This document shows, in pieces, positions 10,162 through 18,265 of a DNA stretch of 64,000 nt. Position 1 is the stretch's first letter. Each line of letters opens with the position of its first letter. Source of the DNA: Candidatus Latescibacterota bacterium (GTDB lineage Bacteria; Latescibacterota; UBA2968); assembly GCA_965205975.1 (NCBI GenBank), contig OZ242195.1, forward strand, positions 1,376,001 through 1,440,000, read 5' to 3'. The position numbers and the translations under genes were made by a program. Under the pieces are notes generated by a model. It did not search any database, was not told the DNA's origin, and saw nothing but the letters and a program-made list of their open reading frames with translations.

Positions 10162-12390
10162 ATGATGGATCGTTTACTGGATAATGAACAAAACGGTAGT
10201 TTGAATTGGTTGAAATATGCTTTGCCCGAAGGCGAAGATGAACTTATCCGGGTGCAGACCGATCTGGATGAAAAAGGCGACTTCGGAAACCAGTGGGTAG
10301 TAGTGACGCGCAATCGCGTGCTGGTGCGACAAAATGGCGCAATAGCAGATATTCCGATTTCCGAAATTGAACTGGCGCGGACCGAGGCTCTGGTGGGCGG
10401 TGCGCGTCTGGAAATTCATCGTAAAAATAAGCCGACCATTCACGTTCCGTATTCCCTGACGCAGGCACAAAAATTTTCGGAGACCACGCGAGGGATTGAG
10501 CAACTGCGCAAGGGGCAAGAATTTTTTATCAATGCGCATCTGGATCGCACAATCTGCGAATCGTGTGGCCGACTATTGCCCGAAAAAAATGGGATATGTC
10601 CGGCGTGTTTGAACAAATTTGCAACGCTGGGGCGCATTGCATCGTATTTGAAGCCGTACAAAATACGCGCGATTGTGCTGGCTCTGGCGTCTATTGTGGG
10701 AACGGTTGCCGAATTGATTCCTCCTTATGTGACCAAGCTCATTGTCGATGATGTGCTGGTGCTGCCCGAAGGCACAGAGGTACAGTATGACGAACGGCTC
10801 AGTTTGCTCGGCTGGCTCGTAATGGCTCTGGTGGGCATCCGGCTGATAACCTGGGGGGCAGAATGGGCGCACGGCTGGACAGTTACGTGGCTTTCCGCAC
10901 GGGTGACGGCGGATATCCGCAGCCAGCTTTACAGGCGTTTGGAATTGCTATCCCTGCAATTTTACGACAAACGGCAAGTTGGCGCAGTGATGTCTCGCGT
11001 GACGACGGATAGCAGTCGTTTACAGATGTTTTTGGTCGATGGATTGCCCTATCTGGTGATCGAGGCGATGATGTTGCTGGGGATTCTCGCCGCGCTGTTT
11101 ATGATGAGTTGGTCACTGGCTATTCTGGTGCTGATTCCCGTGCCGTTAATCATGATCTGGGGATATGCGTTTTATCGGCGGATGCGGAAATTTTTTACCA
11201 GTTGGATGCAGTCGTGGTCTGACACTATGGCGCGAGTCAATGAAGCGCTCACGGGCATTCGCGTGGTGAAGGCGTTTGCACAGGAAAAGCAGGAAATCAG
11301 GGTGTTCAAAAGGCGCAATGATAAATTGACGCGCATCGGCATTACGACAGAGGTCAACCGGGGCATTTTTTACAAAACGATGACCCTGTTGACCGCGGCA
11401 GGCGTGATTATTGTGTGGTATTACGGGGGGCTGGAGGTGATCGATGGGGAGTTGACACTCGGCACTTTGATGGCTTTTTACAGTTATATGATGTTGCTCT
11501 ACGGTCCACTGGAATGGTTTGGGATGGTCAATTCGTGGATGACGCGCGCAATGGCCGGTGCTGAGCGCATTTTTGAGATTATCGACACGCCCTCCGAAGC
11601 GTATCAGGACCCCAATGCCGTGCCGATGCCCAATATTGAAGGGCGCGTGAAGTTTGATGACGTCACATTTGGATACGACAAGAGCAAGCCCGTGCTACAC
11701 GAAATCAACCTCGATGTCAAACCGGGGGAGATGATCGGGCTGGTGGGAAAATCTGGCGTGGGCAAGACGACAACGGTAAATCTGATTTGTCGGTTCTACG
11801 ATGTTGACCGCGGAAGCATTGAGGTTGATGGGGTGAATTTGCGCGATATACGGCTGGAGGATTTGCGGTCTCAAATTGGCATTGTGTTGCAAGAGCCGTT
11901 TCTGTTTTCGGGCAGTATTGCAGAAAATATCGGCTATGGCAAGCCGGGCGCGACATTCGATGAGATTGTGGAAGCGGCCAGGGCTGCCCATGCACACGAC
12001 TTTATCGTGACAAAGCCCGATGGCTACGATACGCTCATCGGTGAGCGAGGAGAATCGCTTTCGGGAGGTGAACGGCAACGCGTGTCCATTGCCCGGGCCA
12101 TTTTACACGATCCCAGGATTTTGATCTTAGACGAGGCCACGTCGTCTGTTGATGTGCAAACGGAAAAACGCATTCAAGATGCGGTTGTGCGCCTGGTCAA
12201 AGGACGAACGACTTTTGCAATAGCCCACCGTTTATCCACCCTTCGCAATGCCGACCGTCTGGTGGTGATGGATGCCGGACGCATTGTGGAAATGGGAACG
12301 CACCGAGAATTGCTGGAACAGAAAGGCATGTTTTACAAATTGGTGCAGATGCAAGAAGAGATTTCACAGATTATTGCAATTAAGGAATAG
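10162..12390 (+). CDS. ABC exporter (TMD+NBD) with N-terminal beta-rich domain and CxxC..CxxC ribbon
   Basis: Walker A GKSGVGKTT, LSGGERQR, ILILDEAT, IAHRLST; multi-TM region; CESCGRLLPEKNGICPAC. Confidence 0.9.
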   Translation: MMDRLLDNEQNGSLNWLKYALPEGEDELIRVQTDLDEKGDFGNQWVVVTRNRVLVRQNGAIADIPISEIELARTEALVGGARLEIHRKNKPTIHVPYSLTQAQKFSETTRGIEQLRKGQEFFINAHLDRTICESCGRLLPEKNGICPACLNKFATLGRIASYLKPYKIRAIVLALASIVGTVAELIPPYVTKLIVDDVLVLPEGTEVQYDERLSLLGWLVMALVGIRLITWGAEWAHGWTVTWLSARVTADIRSQLYRRLELLSLQFYDKRQVGAVMSRVTTDSSRLQMFLVDGLPYLVIEAMMLLGILAALFMMSWSLAILVLIPVPLIMIWGYAFYRRMRKFFTSWMQSWSDTMARVNEALTGIRVVKAFAQEKQEIRVFKRRNDKLTRIGITTEVNRGIFYKTMTLLTAAGVIIVWYYGGLEVIDGELTLGTLMAFYSYMMLLYGPLEWFGMVNSWMTRAMAGAERIFEIIDTPSEAYQDPNAVPMPNIEGRVKFDDVTFGYDKSKPVLHEINLDVKPGEMIGLVGKSGVGKTTTVNLICRFYDVDRGSIEVDGVNLRDIRLEDLRSQIGIVLQEPFLFSGSIAENIGYGKPGATFDEIVEAARAAHAHDFIVTKPDGYDTLIGERGESLSGGERQRVSIARAILHDPRILILDEATSSVDVQTEKRIQDAVVRLVKGRTTFAIAHRLSTLRNADRLVVMDAGRIVEMGTHRELLEQKGMFYKLVQMQEEISQIIAIKE

Positions 12391-12396
12391 GTTCAC

Positions 12397-14676
12397 ATGA
12401 ATTACGCACCTGGAAAACCATTGATCGAAAAACTCCCCCCATCCGTGGCAAAGAAGCTGAGTGCGGCGAAGCCCAATGGCGAGACTGTGCTGATGCAGGT
12501 GGCAACGGATCTGGACGAATCCCTAAATTACAACCCGCAGTGGGTGGTGGTGACCGATCAACAGGTACTGGTGATTCCCGAATCGGGTGTAGATGGCACG
12601 CAGTCAATGGCGATTGGCGATGTGGAAGACGTGAAAGTGGAGGAGCGCGTGGGGTTGGGTGCTCTGGCATTGACGCACAAAGCGGGACCCGGAATGCATG
12701 TATCTTATTCGCCATCTCTTACCGCTGTGTTTGCCGAAGTGGCCGATGGGATTCGGCAGTTGATGGACAATGAGCCGCTAACGTTGCCCACAGAATTGGA
12801 ACAGACGCATTGCGAGAATTGTGGGCGGCGATTGCCCGAAAAAAATGGGGTGTGTGCTGCGTGTTTAAAAAAGTGGCAGACATTCCGGCGTATCGTGGGT
12901 TATATGGCTGCTTATCCCGTGCGCCTGGTGACGACCATAGCTCTGACATTTGTCAGCGCTTTATTTACGCTGCTGCCACCCAAAATTACGGAATATGTGA
13001 TTGACGGTGTTTTGACAACGGGCTGGGACGCGGTTACAATTCCATTAATTGAGTCAACAGATCGCCTTGATCGATTGGGGCTGTTGATCTTAGGGCTTGT
13101 TATTATACGGCTGCTAATCTGGGGCGTCGATGTGGTGATGGCTGCGCTGAGTCGATCGTTGGGGTTGCGCGCTATCGGTGATTTGCGGGAAGATCTCTAT
13201 CGCGCGTTTCAGATGGTACCCGTTCGCTTTTACGACCGGCGAAAAGTGGGTGCGCTGACGTCCCGCATGAATAATGATACGGACCGCATGGAAGTGATCA
13301 TGACGTATGATTTTTATTATGTGTTTTCAAACAGTTTGTTATTTGTCGGCATTCTCGGCTTTCTGGCGTGGATGAACTGGCAACTCACGCTGTTTGTGAT
13401 CGCACCTATTCCGCTAATTGTGCTTGCCGGTACGCGAATATGGTACCGCATTATGACATTCTGGACGCAGTGGTCGGGAAAGTGGGGCAGGCTATCGGCG
13501 CAGTTGAATGAGTCGATTCACGGTATTCGCGTTGTGAAGGCATTTGCACAGGAAGCAAAGGAGAGCGAGCGTTTTGACCAATACAACGAGGATCTGCGCG
13601 ATGTGGATACCCGGGGTGAACGGGCCTGGTTTGTTTTTTGGACCGTGACAAATCTATTTATGAATGTGGGTGTGTTTTTTGTATGGTACTTTGGCGGGCG
13701 GCAGATTCTGGACGGAGAATTGACGCTGGGTGCGTTAATCGCATTTATGAGTTATCTCTGGATGTTGTACCAGCCACTGCGCTGGTTCGGCGATTTTTAC
13801 AGTTATATTTTGCGGGCATTTGCAGGCGCGCAGCGCGTGTTCGAAGTGATTGATTCCGAACCTGAGCCTTACCAAAAACCCGATGCCGTGCGCTTGCCCA
13901 AAATTGAGGGCGGTTTGAAGTTCGAGTCCGTGTTTTTTGGTTATGACCCGGGCAAGCCCGTGCTCAAGGGGGTTGACCTTGAGGTGAAAGCGGGTGAGAT
14001 GATTGGGCTGGTGGGCAAATCGGGCGCTGGCAAGTCAACGCTGATCAATCTGGTGTGTCGGTTCTACGATCCCGACCGCGGGCGGTTGCTGGTGGATGGT
14101 GTGCCGATGACCGATGCGAATTTGCGCGATTTGCGATCCCAAATTGGGATGGTGCATCAGCAGCCCTTTTTGTTTGACGGCACGATTGCCGAAAATATCG
14201 CCTATGGCAAACCAGATGCGACTTTTGACGAGGTAATGCGCGCCGCAATCGCAGCCGAAGCACACGAGTTCATTGTCAAAAAGCCCGATGGTTATGATAT
14301 GCGAGTGGGAGAAAGTGGCGGGCGTCTCTCAGGTGGCGAAAAACAGCGGGTGTCTATCGCGCGGGCAATTTTGCACAATCCGCGAATTCTCATTCTCGAT
14401 GAAGCGACGTCTTCGCTGGATACACCGACCGAGAAGAAGATCCAGGTGGCGATTGCGCGTTTGGTTGAAGGGCGCACGACATTTGCTATAGCACATCGTT
14501 TGTCAACGCTTCGCAGCGCGGATCGGCTCGTGGTGATGGATGAGGGCAATATCGCCGAAGTCGGAACGCATCGTGAGTTGATGGATCGGGAAGGCATTTT
14601 TTATCGCCTGGTCAAGACACAGCAAGAGACGACACTGGATATGTTTATGACTGCGGTGGGGGTAGAGTTGGAATAA
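12397..14676 (+). CDS. ABC exporter (TMD+NBD), paralog of the preceding gene
   Basis: GKSGAGKST, LSGGEKQR, ILILDEAT, IAHRLST; CENCGRRLPEKNGVCAAC. Confidence 0.9.
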   Translation: MNYAPGKPLIEKLPPSVAKKLSAAKPNGETVLMQVATDLDESLNYNPQWVVVTDQQVLVIPESGVDGTQSMAIGDVEDVKVEERVGLGALALTHKAGPGMHVSYSPSLTAVFAEVADGIRQLMDNEPLTLPTELEQTHCENCGRRLPEKNGVCAACLKKWQTFRRIVGYMAAYPVRLVTTIALTFVSALFTLLPPKITEYVIDGVLTTGWDAVTIPLIESTDRLDRLGLLILGLVIIRLLIWGVDVVMAALSRSLGLRAIGDLREDLYRAFQMVPVRFYDRRKVGALTSRMNNDTDRMEVIMTYDFYYVFSNSLLFVGILGFLAWMNWQLTLFVIAPIPLIVLAGTRIWYRIMTFWTQWSGKWGRLSAQLNESIHGIRVVKAFAQEAKESERFDQYNEDLRDVDTRGERAWFVFWTVTNLFMNVGVFFVWYFGGRQILDGELTLGALIAFMSYLWMLYQPLRWFGDFYSYILRAFAGAQRVFEVIDSEPEPYQKPDAVRLPKIEGGLKFESVFFGYDPGKPVLKGVDLEVKAGEMIGLVGKSGAGKSTLINLVCRFYDPDRGRLLVDGVPMTDANLRDLRSQIGMVHQQPFLFDGTIAENIAYGKPDATFDEVMRAAIAAEAHEFIVKKPDGYDMRVGESGGRLSGGEKQRVSIARAILHNPRILILDEATSSLDTPTEKKIQVAIARLVEGRTTFAIAHRLSTLRSADRLVVMDEGNIAEVGTHRELMDREGIFYRLVKTQQETTLDMFMTAVGVELE

Positions 14677-14715: not shown

Positions 14716-14744
14716 TTTAAGAGTAATTTTGATTGGAGATTTTG

Positions 14745-15314
14745 ATGGCTACGGATATGCTGGAGATGGAAGTGGAAGAGCTTAAAGAAAATGCAGAGGA
14801 ATGGAAGCCGATACCCATTGAGATGGTGCATCCCGAATCGGTTGACCCGCGTAAGATCCGCTTGTTTAAGGAGCCACAGTGGATTTTGCGGATGACGATT
14901 GAAGGGGATCGGTCCTATACCCGAGTGAAAGTAGTGCGGGCAGCACCTTTGACGGAACCGGATCGCTATTTTTGCATTCTGGATATCAAGGATGAAGCGA
15001 TCTGCATGATCAAGGATCTGGCTGATTTGCCAGAAGAGAGCCGGTCTCTGGTGTATGAAGAACTGGATAATCGATATTTGACGGCAGAGATTCAGAAAAT
15101 CGTGGCATTGCAAAATGAATATGGCGTGACGTACTGGACTGTCGATACAGACCGGGGCAGGCGCGATTTTGTCGCCAAGTCCGTCGCCGAAAACGCGCAG
15201 TGGCTGGGAGAGACGCGATTGATGATTTTTGATGTGGATAACAACCGCTTTGAGGTACCCGATATACGGGCGCTGGACCGCCGCAGTCAGGGATTGCTGG
15301 AATCGGTTGTGTGA
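14745..15314 (+). CDS. DUF1854 domain-containing protein
   Basis: VRAAPLTEPDRY, EELDNRYL, YWTVDTDRGRRDF, DVDNNRFEVPDIRALDRRS. This family is commonly found next to this ABC exporter type. SD GGAG before ATG 14745. Confidence 0.8.
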   Translation: MATDMLEMEVEELKENAEEWKPIPIEMVHPESVDPRKIRLFKEPQWILRMTIEGDRSYTRVKVVRAAPLTEPDRYFCILDIKDEAICMIKDLADLPEESRSLVYEELDNRYLTAEIQKIVALQNEYGVTYWTVDTDRGRRDFVAKSVAENAQWLGETRLMIFDVDNNRFEVPDIRALDRRSQGLLESVV

Positions 15315-15526: not shown

Positions 15527-15811
15527 ATGAAGCCGAACAACGACAAAGCGATGGTTGACACCAAAACCATCGAGGCATCGGAGTTCAAGATCAAGTGTCT
15601 GAAGCTCATGGACGAGGTTGCTGAAACCGGCGAAGATATTGTCATTACCAGGAACGGCCGCCCGGTTTCGAGACTCGTGCCGTATTGGGAGAAGCCAAAG
15701 ACACTTTGGGGCATTGACCGCGGAAGATTCGAGATACTTGATGACATCATCGAGCCAATTGACGTGGAATGGGAGGCCGAAACCGGTAAAATGCGAGACG
15801 GTGACAAGTGA
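15527..15811 (+). CDS. Phd/YefM family antitoxin
   Basis: IEASEFKIKCLKLMDEVAETGEDIVITRNGRPVSRLVP is a classic Phd motif. SD AAGGA before ATG 15527; alternative start 15551. Confidence 0.88.
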   Translation: MKPNNDKAMVDTKTIEASEFKIKCLKLMDEVAETGEDIVITRNGRPVSRLVPYWEKPKTLWGIDRGRFEILDDIIEPIDVEWEAETGKMRDGDK

Positions 15812-15820
15812 TTCTACTCG
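15808..15820 (+). pseudogene. Stub of a VapC/PIN toxin gene (first 4 codons)
   Basis: GTGA start/stop overlap with the antitoxin, reading M-I-L-L. PIN toxins typically start MILLDTH; the sequence diverges here and runs into a terminator. Confidence 0.45.
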
Positions 15821-15834
15821 TACAATCGAGCTGC

Positions 15835-15877
15835 AAAGAGCATGCCCCGGCATTTTTGATGCTGGGGTGTTCTTTTT
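15835..15877 (+). terminator. Intrinsic terminator
   Basis: AAAGAGCATGCCCCGGCAT / ATGCTGGGGTGTTCTTT stem followed by a T tract. Confidence 0.65.
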
Positions 15878-15975
15878 GGGGTGGGGTATCCTGTTCTTCC
15901 TTGCATCACTGGATAGAACCATTCCAGTGCAGGCTCTGCTTATCCTGATCCTTTTTTCTTGTCTGATCTTTCACT

Positions 15976-16405
15976 TTCCTGTAGGAAGCCACGTCCTTTG
16001 GGCGTGGTCAGAGATAGTTGGCTTTGCCGTTAAGCCGTTTTGTAGGTATATTTCGCAGGTGCTATCGTAGCGCACACAAAGGCACTCTCTTTTGAGAGTA
16101 AACGGTTTCAGTGTGGGATAGCACACAAAACCCTCTCTGTGATGTTAGTTGAGAGGCAGATTTGGCAACAACAGCGGTATGGATTGCGGTTGTGTTGTCG
16201 TCAAATCTGATGGGCACAGTTAGGGGCCTGACCTCCCAAACCTGCGGTAGCAATCCGCTGCTGTCAACTGCCCTGAAGTCTCGCCACGCAGTGAGCGGTT
16301 TAAACCTAAGCCCTTGCTCGGATATGCTGCATTGCCTCCAATGGGTGGGTCAAGCACCTGGGGTGTGGCAGGGACAAGCCACCTGCTCAGCAGGTGGTGG
16401 TTGAC
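15976..16405 (+). mobile_element. Non-autonomous IS200/IS605-family derivative with TnpB omega-RNA-like 3' module, no intact ORF
   Basis: Left subterminal hairpin GAAG-CCACGTCC-TTT-GGGCGTGG (15989-16007). Right hairpin CAAG-CCACCTGC-TCA-GCAGGTGG then TGGTTGAC (to 16405). GTCAACTGCC (16263-72) can pair with GGTGGTTGAC (16396-405). Left boundary is approximate. Confidence 0.62.
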
Positions 16406-16501
16406 GAATCACTAACTTGTCGAAACTCAGTGAGACATTTGCGCGTCTTATTGCAATCGGATATCAGCAAGTCATTTTAATACAGTTATCTGGAGGATTT
16501 T

Positions 16502-18265
16502 ATGCGAAAGAAAATAGGTCGAATTTTGGCCTGGATTGGTGGGATTACGGTTGGGCTGGTCGTCCTGACCGTCTTGTCAATTGTATTGCTATCTGGCGAA
16601 GATCCCGTGCCCGATCAGGTGATTTTGGAGATCAACCTGGAGCAGGGGGTTGCGGAGTATGTACCCGAAGATCCATTTGCAAAGTTAATCTCAGACGATG
16701 TGCGCTCGCTACGCGATGTGGTAGGTGCTTTAGACGCGGCGGCTTTAGATGACCGCGTTGTGGGGTTGCTGGCCCGAGGGGGCGGAGCACCGATGGGCTT
16801 TGCGCAGGCACAAGAGATAAGAGATGCGGTTCTGGATTTTGGAAAAAGCGGAAAACCCACCGCGATTTTTGCCGAGACATTTGGCGAATTTGGATCGGGA
16901 AATGTCGGATATTATCTGGCGACAGCATTTGAGCACATCTATCTTCAGCCCTCGGGTGATGTGGGTTTGATCGGACTGGCAATGGAGCATCCCTTTGTGA
17001 AGGGAACATTGGATTCGCTTGGGATTGGTGTGCAGATGGATCACCGGTATGAGTATAAAAATGCGATGAACCTATATACCGAAACCGAATTTACAGATGC
17101 GCATCGCGAGGCGAGTGAGGTACTTTTGAAGTCGATGGTCGATCAGATGGTCCTGGGGATTTCACAAGGGCGAGATACAACGCCCGAAGCCGTGCGCGAT
17201 CTCATTAACCGCGGACCTTTTTTGGCCTTATCTGCCCATGCCGAAGGCCTGGTAGATAGCCTGGCGTATTGGGATGAAGTGCGCGACCTGGTGAAGCGCG
17301 AGCATGGCGAAGATACCAAATGGTTGGATATAAAAAATTATCTCAAGCGCATTGATGAAAAACCTTATGGTGAAGGGACAAAGGTGGCGTTGATATACGG
17401 CGTGGGACCTGTGCTTCGCGGGAAGAGTGCCTACGATCCCTTATATGGGTCTGCTACAATGGGCGCGAGTACCCTGACCAAAGCTTTTCGCGATGCTGTG
17501 AAGGATAAGGATGTACGTGCAATTTTGTTTCGAATAGACTCTCCCGGTGGGTCTTACGTTGCTTCTGACGCGATCTGGCGCGAGGTTGCCAAAGCTAAGA
17601 AGGCCGACAAACCAGTAGTTGTATCAATGGGTAATGTGGCCGGTTCTGGGGGATATTTTGTGGCGATGAATGCCGATAAAATTGTGGCGCAACCCGGTAG
17701 CATCACGGGATCCATTGGGGTATTAGCGGGAAAGTTTGTGACAACTGAGTTTTGGGAACGTCTGGGCATAACCTGGGATACGGCGCAAGTGGGAGAAAAT
17801 GCGCTGATATGGAGCACGGGTGTAGAATTTACACCCGAACAATGGGCGAGATTTCAGACGTGGTTAGACCGCATTTACGAAGATTTCACGGCAAAGGTGG
17901 GCGAAGGACGCAATATGTCACGGGCCGATGTTCACGCTGTGGCAAAGGGACGAATCTGGACAGGGGAGGATGCAAAATCGCACGGTCTGGTCGATGAATT
18001 GGGCGGCATGAAGACCGCGATGCGTCTGATTCGGGAGGCATTGGAATTGGAAGCTGATGCATCTCTCAACCTCGTGGTATTTCCGAAAGAAAAGACGTTA
18101 ATAGAACAGGTGATGGAAAAAGGCCTGATCCGCACGATGAGCAATGGCGATGCGCTGGTGAGACTCATCACAGAGTTGCAACCCGTTTTTCGCTTTGCGC
18201 GCACAGTGGGGCAGCCGCGACAGGTTTTGGAGATGACACCCGTAGATATTCGGTTAGACGAATAG
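16502..18265 (+). CDS. sppA: Signal peptide peptidase SppA (S49, long two-domain form)
   Basis: N-terminal TM, YKNA, RIDSPGG, SMGNVAGSGGY, TGSIGV, GRIWTGEDA...GLVDELGG. Confidence 0.93.
   Translation: MRKKIGRILAWIGGITVGLVVLTVLSIVLLSGEDPVPDQVILEINLEQGVAEYVPEDPFAKLISDDVRSLRDVVGALDAAALDDRVVGLLARGGGAPMGFAQAQEIRDAVLDFGKSGKPTAIFAETFGEFGSGNVGYYLATAFEHIYLQPSGDVGLIGLAMEHPFVKGTLDSLGIGVQMDHRYEYKNAMNLYTETEFTDAHREASEVLLKSMVDQMVLGISQGRDTTPEAVRDLINRGPFLALSAHAEGLVDSLAYWDEVRDLVKREHGEDTKWLDIKNYLKRIDEKPYGEGTKVALIYGVGPVLRGKSAYDPLYGSATMGASTLTKAFRDAVKDKDVRAILFRIDSPGGSYVASDAIWREVAKAKKADKPVVVSMGNVAGSGGYFVAMNADKIVAQPGSITGSIGVLAGKFVTTEFWERLGITWDTAQVGENALIWSTGVEFTPEQWARFQTWLDRIYEDFTAKVGEGRNMSRADVHAVAKGRIWTGEDAKSHGLVDELGGMKTAMRLIREALELEADASLNLVVFPKEKTLIEQVMEKGLIRTMSNGDALVRLITELQPVFRFARTVGQPRQVLEMTPVDIRLDE

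Follow-up and report, generated by a model that had tools for sequence, protein, structure and literature searches.

The window, the 64,000-nt stretch of Candidatus Latescibacterota DNA analysed here, contains a gene-less element present at several genomic sites that is probably transcribed from a promoter of its own into an RNA about 360 nt long, probably uses a borrowed TnpB to cut empty sites and carries near its 5′ end a motif predicted to act as a TnpB recognition or processing signal. We assign this reading as a whole a probability of roughly 0.6. As an element it belongs to a familiar kind, the non-autonomous IS200/IS605 elements of the PATE type; what sets it apart is the 5′ motif. A sequence-only reading made before this analysis had described the element largely correctly and had missed the promoter and the motif (16078–16109). 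The parts of the element described below are given on the forward (+) strand.

The element spans positions 15975–16405 (431 bp) and directly follows its target, or TAM, TTCAC (15970–15974), which is host DNA outside the element and is also the target of the intact tnpB element in the same genome; the earlier left boundary of 15976 is thereby corrected by this analysis. The left end (15985–16007) is composed of the DNA guide GAAG (15985–15988) and a subterminal hairpin (15989–16007), and the right end (16375–16405) of the DNA guide CAAG (16375–16378), a hairpin (16379–16397) and the terminal motif TTGAC (16401–16405). Both GC-rich hairpins with their preceding AAG, the terminal GGTTGAC at 16405 and two peptide traces in different frames, TSQTC (16231–16245) and AVNCPEVS (16260–16283), had been noticed earlier and are indeed present, and the element is devoid of any tnpA or tnpB open reading frame, as had been stated. 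All 12 copies with an intact left end are preceded by TCAC, and 11 of them by TTCAC; GAAG accompanies TCAC as the left DNA guide in 11 of the 12, GAAA accompanies the target TCAT in three of five related tnpB elements, and CAAG accompanies TGAC at the right end. The four-base guides at both ends follow the pairing rule of IS608.

The window genome harbors three copies at 99% identity, one of which lacks the left hairpin. Altogether, 13 full or near-full copies at 10 distinct sites were found in 8 of the 61 genomes searched, all eight belonging to the same genus, with copy identities of 68–100%. All 13 copies end at GTTGAC and their flanks are unrelated, so that copies with sharp shared ends and variable flanks, which had been proposed as a check, do exist. 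The element also occurs in public records of Candidatus Latescibacterota, and the sequencing runs containing it include sponge metagenomes; blastn of two elements against plasmids gave no match, and an exact pattern derived from the TSQTC region had 0 matches in metagenomes. Vacant counterparts of the insertion site, likewise sought as a check, were seen in 15 of 20 relatives, where the right flank aligns up to the junction and the element is missing; the other five diverge upstream and also lack it. In the empty alleles (L301–L315) the flank spacing is equal, which fits a clean insertion, while the last 12 nt differ. TTCAC is absent at the junction in all 15, and none would therefore be cut using the window guide. 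This guide, placed by analogy at 16406–16421 in the host flank, is predicted to target the element's own empty site, and the TAM followed by the guide occurs nowhere in the genome.

The multi-site copies, sharp ends, target and empty sites support the earlier assignment to the non-autonomous IS200/IS605 elements. It is identified as a PATE by subterminal hairpins next to DNA guides at either end, by insertion on the 3′ side of a constant 4–5-nt target that is not duplicated, and by the occupation of several sites without a protein gene. According to the available text on the PATEs of Geobacillus stearothermophilus (10.1101/2023.03.14.532601), these likewise have no protein gene, hairpin ends, TAM/TEM sequences, DNA guides, no target duplication and a right-end omega-RNA that needs TnpB in trans; in contrast to the window element, no 5′ RNA domain or tnpB-internal motif appears in that text.

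Two observations on individual copies may be added. The third copy of the window genome (G000:C1:3569550–3569951) has lost its left hairpin and is therefore likely immobile, retains the promoter and the RNA, and lies 24 nt before an acetate-kinase-like open reading frame. At one site shared by genomes G016 and G020, the two elements are 73% alike and their right flanks 92% alike, which suggests repeated insertion or replacement at a single target.

Neither a profile search nor tblastn with the proteins of eight relatives detected a Y1 transposase in the window genome (98% complete). A Y1 match was found in 13 of 21 genomes of the genus, and the relative G006 encodes an intact tnpA flanked by a hairpin identical to the left end of the element. 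The window genome has eight TnpB domain matches, seven of them in full-length frames. An intact TnpB at C1:3181834–3182922, with Pfam TNB and OrfB domains and DLG/EDL/HAD motifs, appears by its shared motifs to belong to the AmaTnpB clade; its element is inserted after TTCAC, and its right end is the closest to that of the window element. The TAM listed for AmaTnpB in the accessible part of PMC10278001 is also TTCAC. The tnpB relative anticipated by the sequence-only reading thus exists as far as a related right end is concerned, but not with the same exact 3′ end: no direct parent tnpB ending in this way was found in 168 genomes of the phylum, and the left and right ends of the element resemble two different tnpB subfamilies. 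With the query used, no TnpB of the AmaTnpB-type clade was detected in G010 and G020, which both carry the element, or in G007. Elsewhere in the window genome, a tnpB element (G000:C1:936914–937728) has undergone an internal deletion that removed the RuvC-II region and kept the omega-RNA end, and lone left-end-type hairpins lie between A and T runs at G000:C1:3068189, 4762348 and 4766351; these hairpins resemble the right end of the IS200 element in G006.

The 3′ half of the element matches the omega-RNA of the AmaTnpB-type clade. The scaffold, of the expanded TnpB type (16212–16405), comprises the right-end hairpin, two stems (16212–16216/16269–16273 and 16278–16289/16363–16375) and a pseudoknot (16263–16268/16400–16405). 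A family-specific domain (16132–16256) with hairpins at 16132–16156 and 16157–16209 holds the TSQTC trace and a predicted loop pairing (16181–16187/16250–16256), in which compensatory changes from A-U to G-C occur in 4 of 10 copies, representing few independent lineages. Across 10 aligned copies (about four lineages), a structure of 78 pairs is paired in 96.9% of cells; two-sided changes were found at 12 of the 78 pairs, a figure inflated by kinship and reached in none of 500 shuffles. The pseudoknot was evaluated with 50 tnpB genes, of which 31 were scored and 19 were not scorable: GTCAAC is fully complementary to the last six bases in 24 of the 31 elements, in seven sequence types, as compared with a mean of 8.1 and a maximum of 14 in a permuted control. 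Two features of omega-RNAs described in PMC10278001 and PMC12558985 are both present: the hairpin of the right end is no more than 10 nt from the guide, and the terminal motif takes part in a pseudoknot. The 3′ 226 nt fold no better than shuffled sequences (z = −1.29), so the structure rests on covariation rather than energy.

Compensatory changes, the lack of which the sequence-only reading had listed among its refuting conditions, were found. Its GCCACGC/GTGTGGC pairing is supported, and GTCAACTGCC/GGTGGTTGAC stands in its 6-bp core, which covaries (24/31), but not in its extension, which is disrupted in 4 of the 10 aligned copies and in competition with the hairpin of the right end. The third pairing, CCCTG/CAGGG, is likely wrong, as it excludes two better supported helices, GTCTC/GGGAC and GGGCA/TGCCC, both of which fit the variation among copies and in tnpB elements. 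The suggested covariance-model check gave 0 Rfam matches in the window at E values up to 1, and 12 related loci gave 0 matches to Rfam families including HEARO, IS605-associated motifs, ribozymes and riboswitches. Resemblances to ribozymes and riboswitches, having no Rfam support, were set aside. An IStron, in which a group I intron is joined to an IS, was rejected as well: in IStrons the 5′ exon ends in U and the element in G, whereas both junctions here end in C, and no Rfam match was obtained.

Taken with the nuclease gene described above, these data suggest that the element would supply an omega-RNA in trans and that its RNA is likely a guide for a TnpB encoded elsewhere. Standalone omega-RNAs, as described in the accessible text of PMC10691335, work in trans and are likewise mobilised guide RNAs without an effector, with a compatible effector in the genome; the window RNA differs from them in its length of about 360 nt, its leading motif derived from a nuclease gene and its several added domains.

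A sigma70-like promoter, TTGCCG-17-TATATT (16024–16052), with a predicted start at about 16059, is the sole promoter-like site in 750 nt, where 0.6 would be expected by chance, and diverged copies have a different −35/−10 pair at the same place. Eight of 21 listed sequencing runs were examined for element contigs. In all seven RNA or presumed-RNA runs, contigs cover the element body, giving neither strand nor ends; the absence of a transcript, which would have counted against the sequence-only reading, is therefore not what RNA libraries indicate. No RNA contig includes the window copy's own flank, and this missing RNA cover of the flanks carries no weight because the window strain is not shown in those runs. 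One RNA contig, belonging to another copy, departs from the element 17 nt ahead of an A-run, and three continue for 118–229 nt. The 5′ stops of the contigs scatter (16015, 16020, 16045, 16075, 16075, 16077 and 16100); the three near 16076, from two studies, offer no more than a weak hint. Overall, these observations provide a weak demonstration of transcription.

The less ordinary part of the element is its 5′ RNA domain (16059–16124), in which closing stems (16059–16066/16117–16124 and 16073–16077/16111–16115) surround the conserved motif AAAGGCA-[hairpin]-YAAACGGTTTC (16078–16109), homologous to tnpB codons ~254–256 and 273–275. Compensatory changes are seen at 4 of 13 pairs of the domain. 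A search of genome contigs with this pattern returned 10 stretches, eight from the family of the window element and two from gene-less elements of Chloroflexota. With a looser pattern, 85 metagenome stretches were retrieved, of which 79 were parsed and six dropped by the regular expression. The inner stem is paired in 15 of the 79, and 14 of these 15 have element features: 12 are followed by a right-end hairpin, and the remaining three are a cut-off copy of such a family, a left end without a right end, and a stretch without element features. None of the 79 parsed stretches lies near a TnpB match. A −10-like box is located 9–13 nt upstream of the motif in 14 of 14 cases, compared with 16 of the 65 other matches, a spacing which argues that the motif heads the transcript.

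Downstream of the motif, the elements fall into up to nine groups that differ in omega cores and ends. Among the gene-less elements, the motif stems covary and the loop boxes stay fixed, an invariance that is partly built in, since a fixed pattern was used to collect them; descent of the groups from a single ancestor is also possible. A covariance model of the motif identified one new element outside its training set (L293), in another family of the class. Other matches of the model were discarded: a further weak one (L294) is not an element, and those on the Chloroflexota side, in 2 of 151 genomes, are the training locus and a chance match in a CRISPR array. The pattern had 0 matches in viral contigs. 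The model also gave no match at a different, 299-bp gene-less element of the window genome (G000:C1, about 634840–635140), whose 5′ module must therefore be another one. Eight loci (L054, L207, L215, L232, L267, L272, L273 and L293) display a second shared module directly after the motif, a stem with GGTTG on one side and CRYAAA on the other; it occurs in most groups other than that of the window element, and neither the window element nor tnpB genes have a clear counterpart. Rfam contains no match for the 5′ motif, we found no description of it in the open-access literature, and the available text of a 2026 review (PMC13639567) does not mention it.

The counterpart of the motif was analyzed in 50 tnpB genes with less than 80% identity, drawn from 73 collected. 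When the 363 columns are ranked by synonymous-codon bias, seven of the top 13 fall at codons 250–275, around the RuvC-II Glu (codon 263), and the other six fall in the known omega-RNA overlap and serve as a positive control. The 3′ box is found in 46 of the 50 genes (15.7 expected), 26 of them having it in one reading phase and 20 in another, a pattern that selection on the protein does not explain. The 5′ box coincides with codons 254–256, which replaced an initial placement on the K-G-I codons, where folding energy was unremarkable (mean z = −0.04). The adjoining stem changes in step across genes (CTGGC/GCCAG, CTAGC/GCTAG, CTCTG/CAGAG, CTTCC/GGAAG): at least four Watson-Crick pairs form in 14 of 46 genes, against 3.3 with permuted partners (maximum 9 in 1000) and 2.1 after recoding, and 32 of the 46 lack a contiguous 4-bp stem. 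The two boxes of the gene-less elements score best at the RuvC-II site in 29 of the 50 genes, where 0.3 would be expected by chance; for all these counts, boxes, windows and gap ranges were set after inspection of the data, and the genes are mutually related. RNAalifold found no common structure for 39 tnpB segments, the named fold was paired in 66% of cells on these segments compared with 62% after shuffling, the motif covariance model reached E values no better than 0.2 at tnpB loci, and a tnpB nucleotide profile missed the window element. The fold inside tnpB genes is thus moderately supported. By comparison of the sequences, the motif appears to be the base of a stem-loop that surrounds the RuvC-II codons in tnpB mRNA and whose 50-nt top has been reduced to a short loop.

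AmaTnpB belongs, by its sequence motifs, to the same clade as the TnpB of the window genome and uses the same TAM, and its mRNA has both boxes and the stem in the RuvC-II region, at about nt 784–846 by hand count. According to PMC10278001, cleavage is reduced by a feature of this mRNA that lies beside RuvC-II, between nt 825 and 875: an 825-nt fragment does not inhibit, and an 875-nt fragment does. Pairing of this region with the omega-RNA was proposed there, and its conservation was left open. The published 751–875 fragment contains both boxes and the stem, and the cut at 825 removes the 3′ half. The motif thus seems to coincide with the published cleavage-inhibiting region, which, in contrast to the proposal in that text, would be a conserved stem-loop with fixed loop boxes retained by gene-less elements. 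New here are the motif on either side of RuvC-II, the two-phase and covariation results, the distance from the promoter and the correspondence with the AmaTnpB region.

We propose the following mechanism. An element whose ends, target, copies and empty sites were directly observed would be moved by a TnpA associated with the same left-end hairpin, absent here and present in a relative. It would be transcribed from its own promoter, as the RNA contigs weakly indicate, and covariation suggests that the 3′ 190 nt serve as an omega-RNA for the AmaTnpB-type nuclease encoded at C1:3181834–3182922. The resident TnpB could then be used to cut alleles that lack the element and so to bring it back, as has been published for this family. 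The motif, which the comparison identifies as the base of a stem-loop shared with tnpB mRNA, likely marks an overlooked signal for TnpB loading or control. In an intact element, it might tie newly made TnpB to its own mRNA and keep TnpB inactive until trimming removes the 5′ portion; guide-only parasites may have retained it since they have to vie for the nuclease. A broader proposal, that tnpB genes of the AmaTnpB clade contain a second RNA element around the RuvC-II codons, which TnpB recognises to capture and license its own transcript and which parasites across phyla have reduced to a 32-nt aptamer at +1 to hijack the nuclease, is one that we hold tentatively, at somewhat below even odds.

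These proposals bear on the question of how TnpB recognises its own RNA, and on that of how elements with only a guide vie for a nuclease encoded elsewhere. The motif offers a defined 32-nt object for mutation and gives a likely structure to the inhibitory AmaTnpB mRNA region, the conservation of which the available text of PMC10278001 leaves open. If the proposals are true, the RuvC-II RNA element would be a natural loading tag, or an off-switch, for TnpB of this clade. Were TnpB to bind the motif, codon-optimised genome-editing constructs would be without it, and restoring it might aid loading; alternatively, it could be used as a brake.

Against a role in loading stands the fact that, in the accessible text of PMC10278001, the only published activity of the matching region is inhibition, and this region of the AmaTnpB mRNA reduces DNA cleavage in trans. 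The motif could accordingly be an inhibitor only, the element RNA binding or misfolding TnpB complexes as a decoy or brake instead of a working guide. A 16-nt stretch (16308–16323) fits this idea at first sight: it is antisense to the start of the cognate omega-RNA, being the exact antisense of the NIRARA codons at the 3′ end of the coding sequence in the cognate tnpB family, and is nearly invariant across lineages. However, its co-folding with the cognate omega-RNA in trans (−6.2 kcal/mol) gains no more than that with non-cognate RNAs (−5.0 to −9.2 kcal/mol), and such pairing is not favoured; the stretch also forms an arm of a local hairpin and is likely an old inverted duplication that now folds locally. 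Moreover, the omega-RNA core, the pseudoknot and the guide junction are kept intact, and the fixed boxes do not, by eye, covary with the omega-RNA cores of different elements. We therefore regard a purely inhibitory element as unlikely.

Descent could also account for part of the pattern: in an ordinary PATE, the 5′ domain would be the relic of a deleted tnpB, at most a shield for the 5′ end, with boxes kept from one ancestor. The motif and the TSQTC and AVN traces do follow tnpB order, fold support inside genes is only moderate, and the pattern search itself enforces the boxes. Yet up to nine groups with differing stems, ends and omega cores share unchanged loop boxes, and within genes the 3′ box persists in either of two reading phases, which makes a mere relic quite improbable.

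The fifth genome match of the motif model (E = 0.46) is the antisense strand of 23S rRNA (G000:C1:3319085–3319183), and the boxes resemble the antisense of domain I, with 12–14 nt of complementarity to the 3′ strand of its closing helix. The motif might thus pair with this strand and bring the RNA to ribosomes making TnpB: in 11 of 12 elements, this is the 23S site with which the 3′ box region forms its best pairing, with energies from −16.5 to −25.6 kcal/mol, whereas 18 random 17-mers have a median near −17.7 kcal/mol. The likeness was found after the fact and is not significant, the same 12-mer occurs nine times in the genome, no compensatory change is seen where the 23S rRNA of a Chloroflexota host differs, and many tnpB box variants would not pair. 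In mature ribosomes, this strand is already paired. The resemblance is likely due to chance, and a ribosomal role is very improbable.

Finally, the element lies between a Phd-type antitoxin gene (15527–15811) and the S49 peptidase gene sppA (16502–18265). That the flank is the upstream region of sppA, as the sequence-only reading had noted, is correct but carries no special meaning: the other copies lie beside unrelated genes in both orientations, and the sppA site is thus incidental. Although the guide falls upstream of sppA and the element points towards it, a domesticated cassette regulating sppA is barely credible and already largely refuted by the absence of the element from this site in all 20 relatives, the 10 sites beside unrelated genes in both orientations, the catalytic motifs of the cognate TnpB and the lack of a TAM-plus-guide target in the genome. 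Within 15527–15948, the Phd/YefM antitoxin gene is followed only by a short "MILL" frame, perhaps the remnant of a toxin gene, and the repeat after this frame recurs at four other places in the genome. Further upstream, two tandem ABC transporter genes of similar build (10162–14676) precede a DUF1854 gene (14733–15314).
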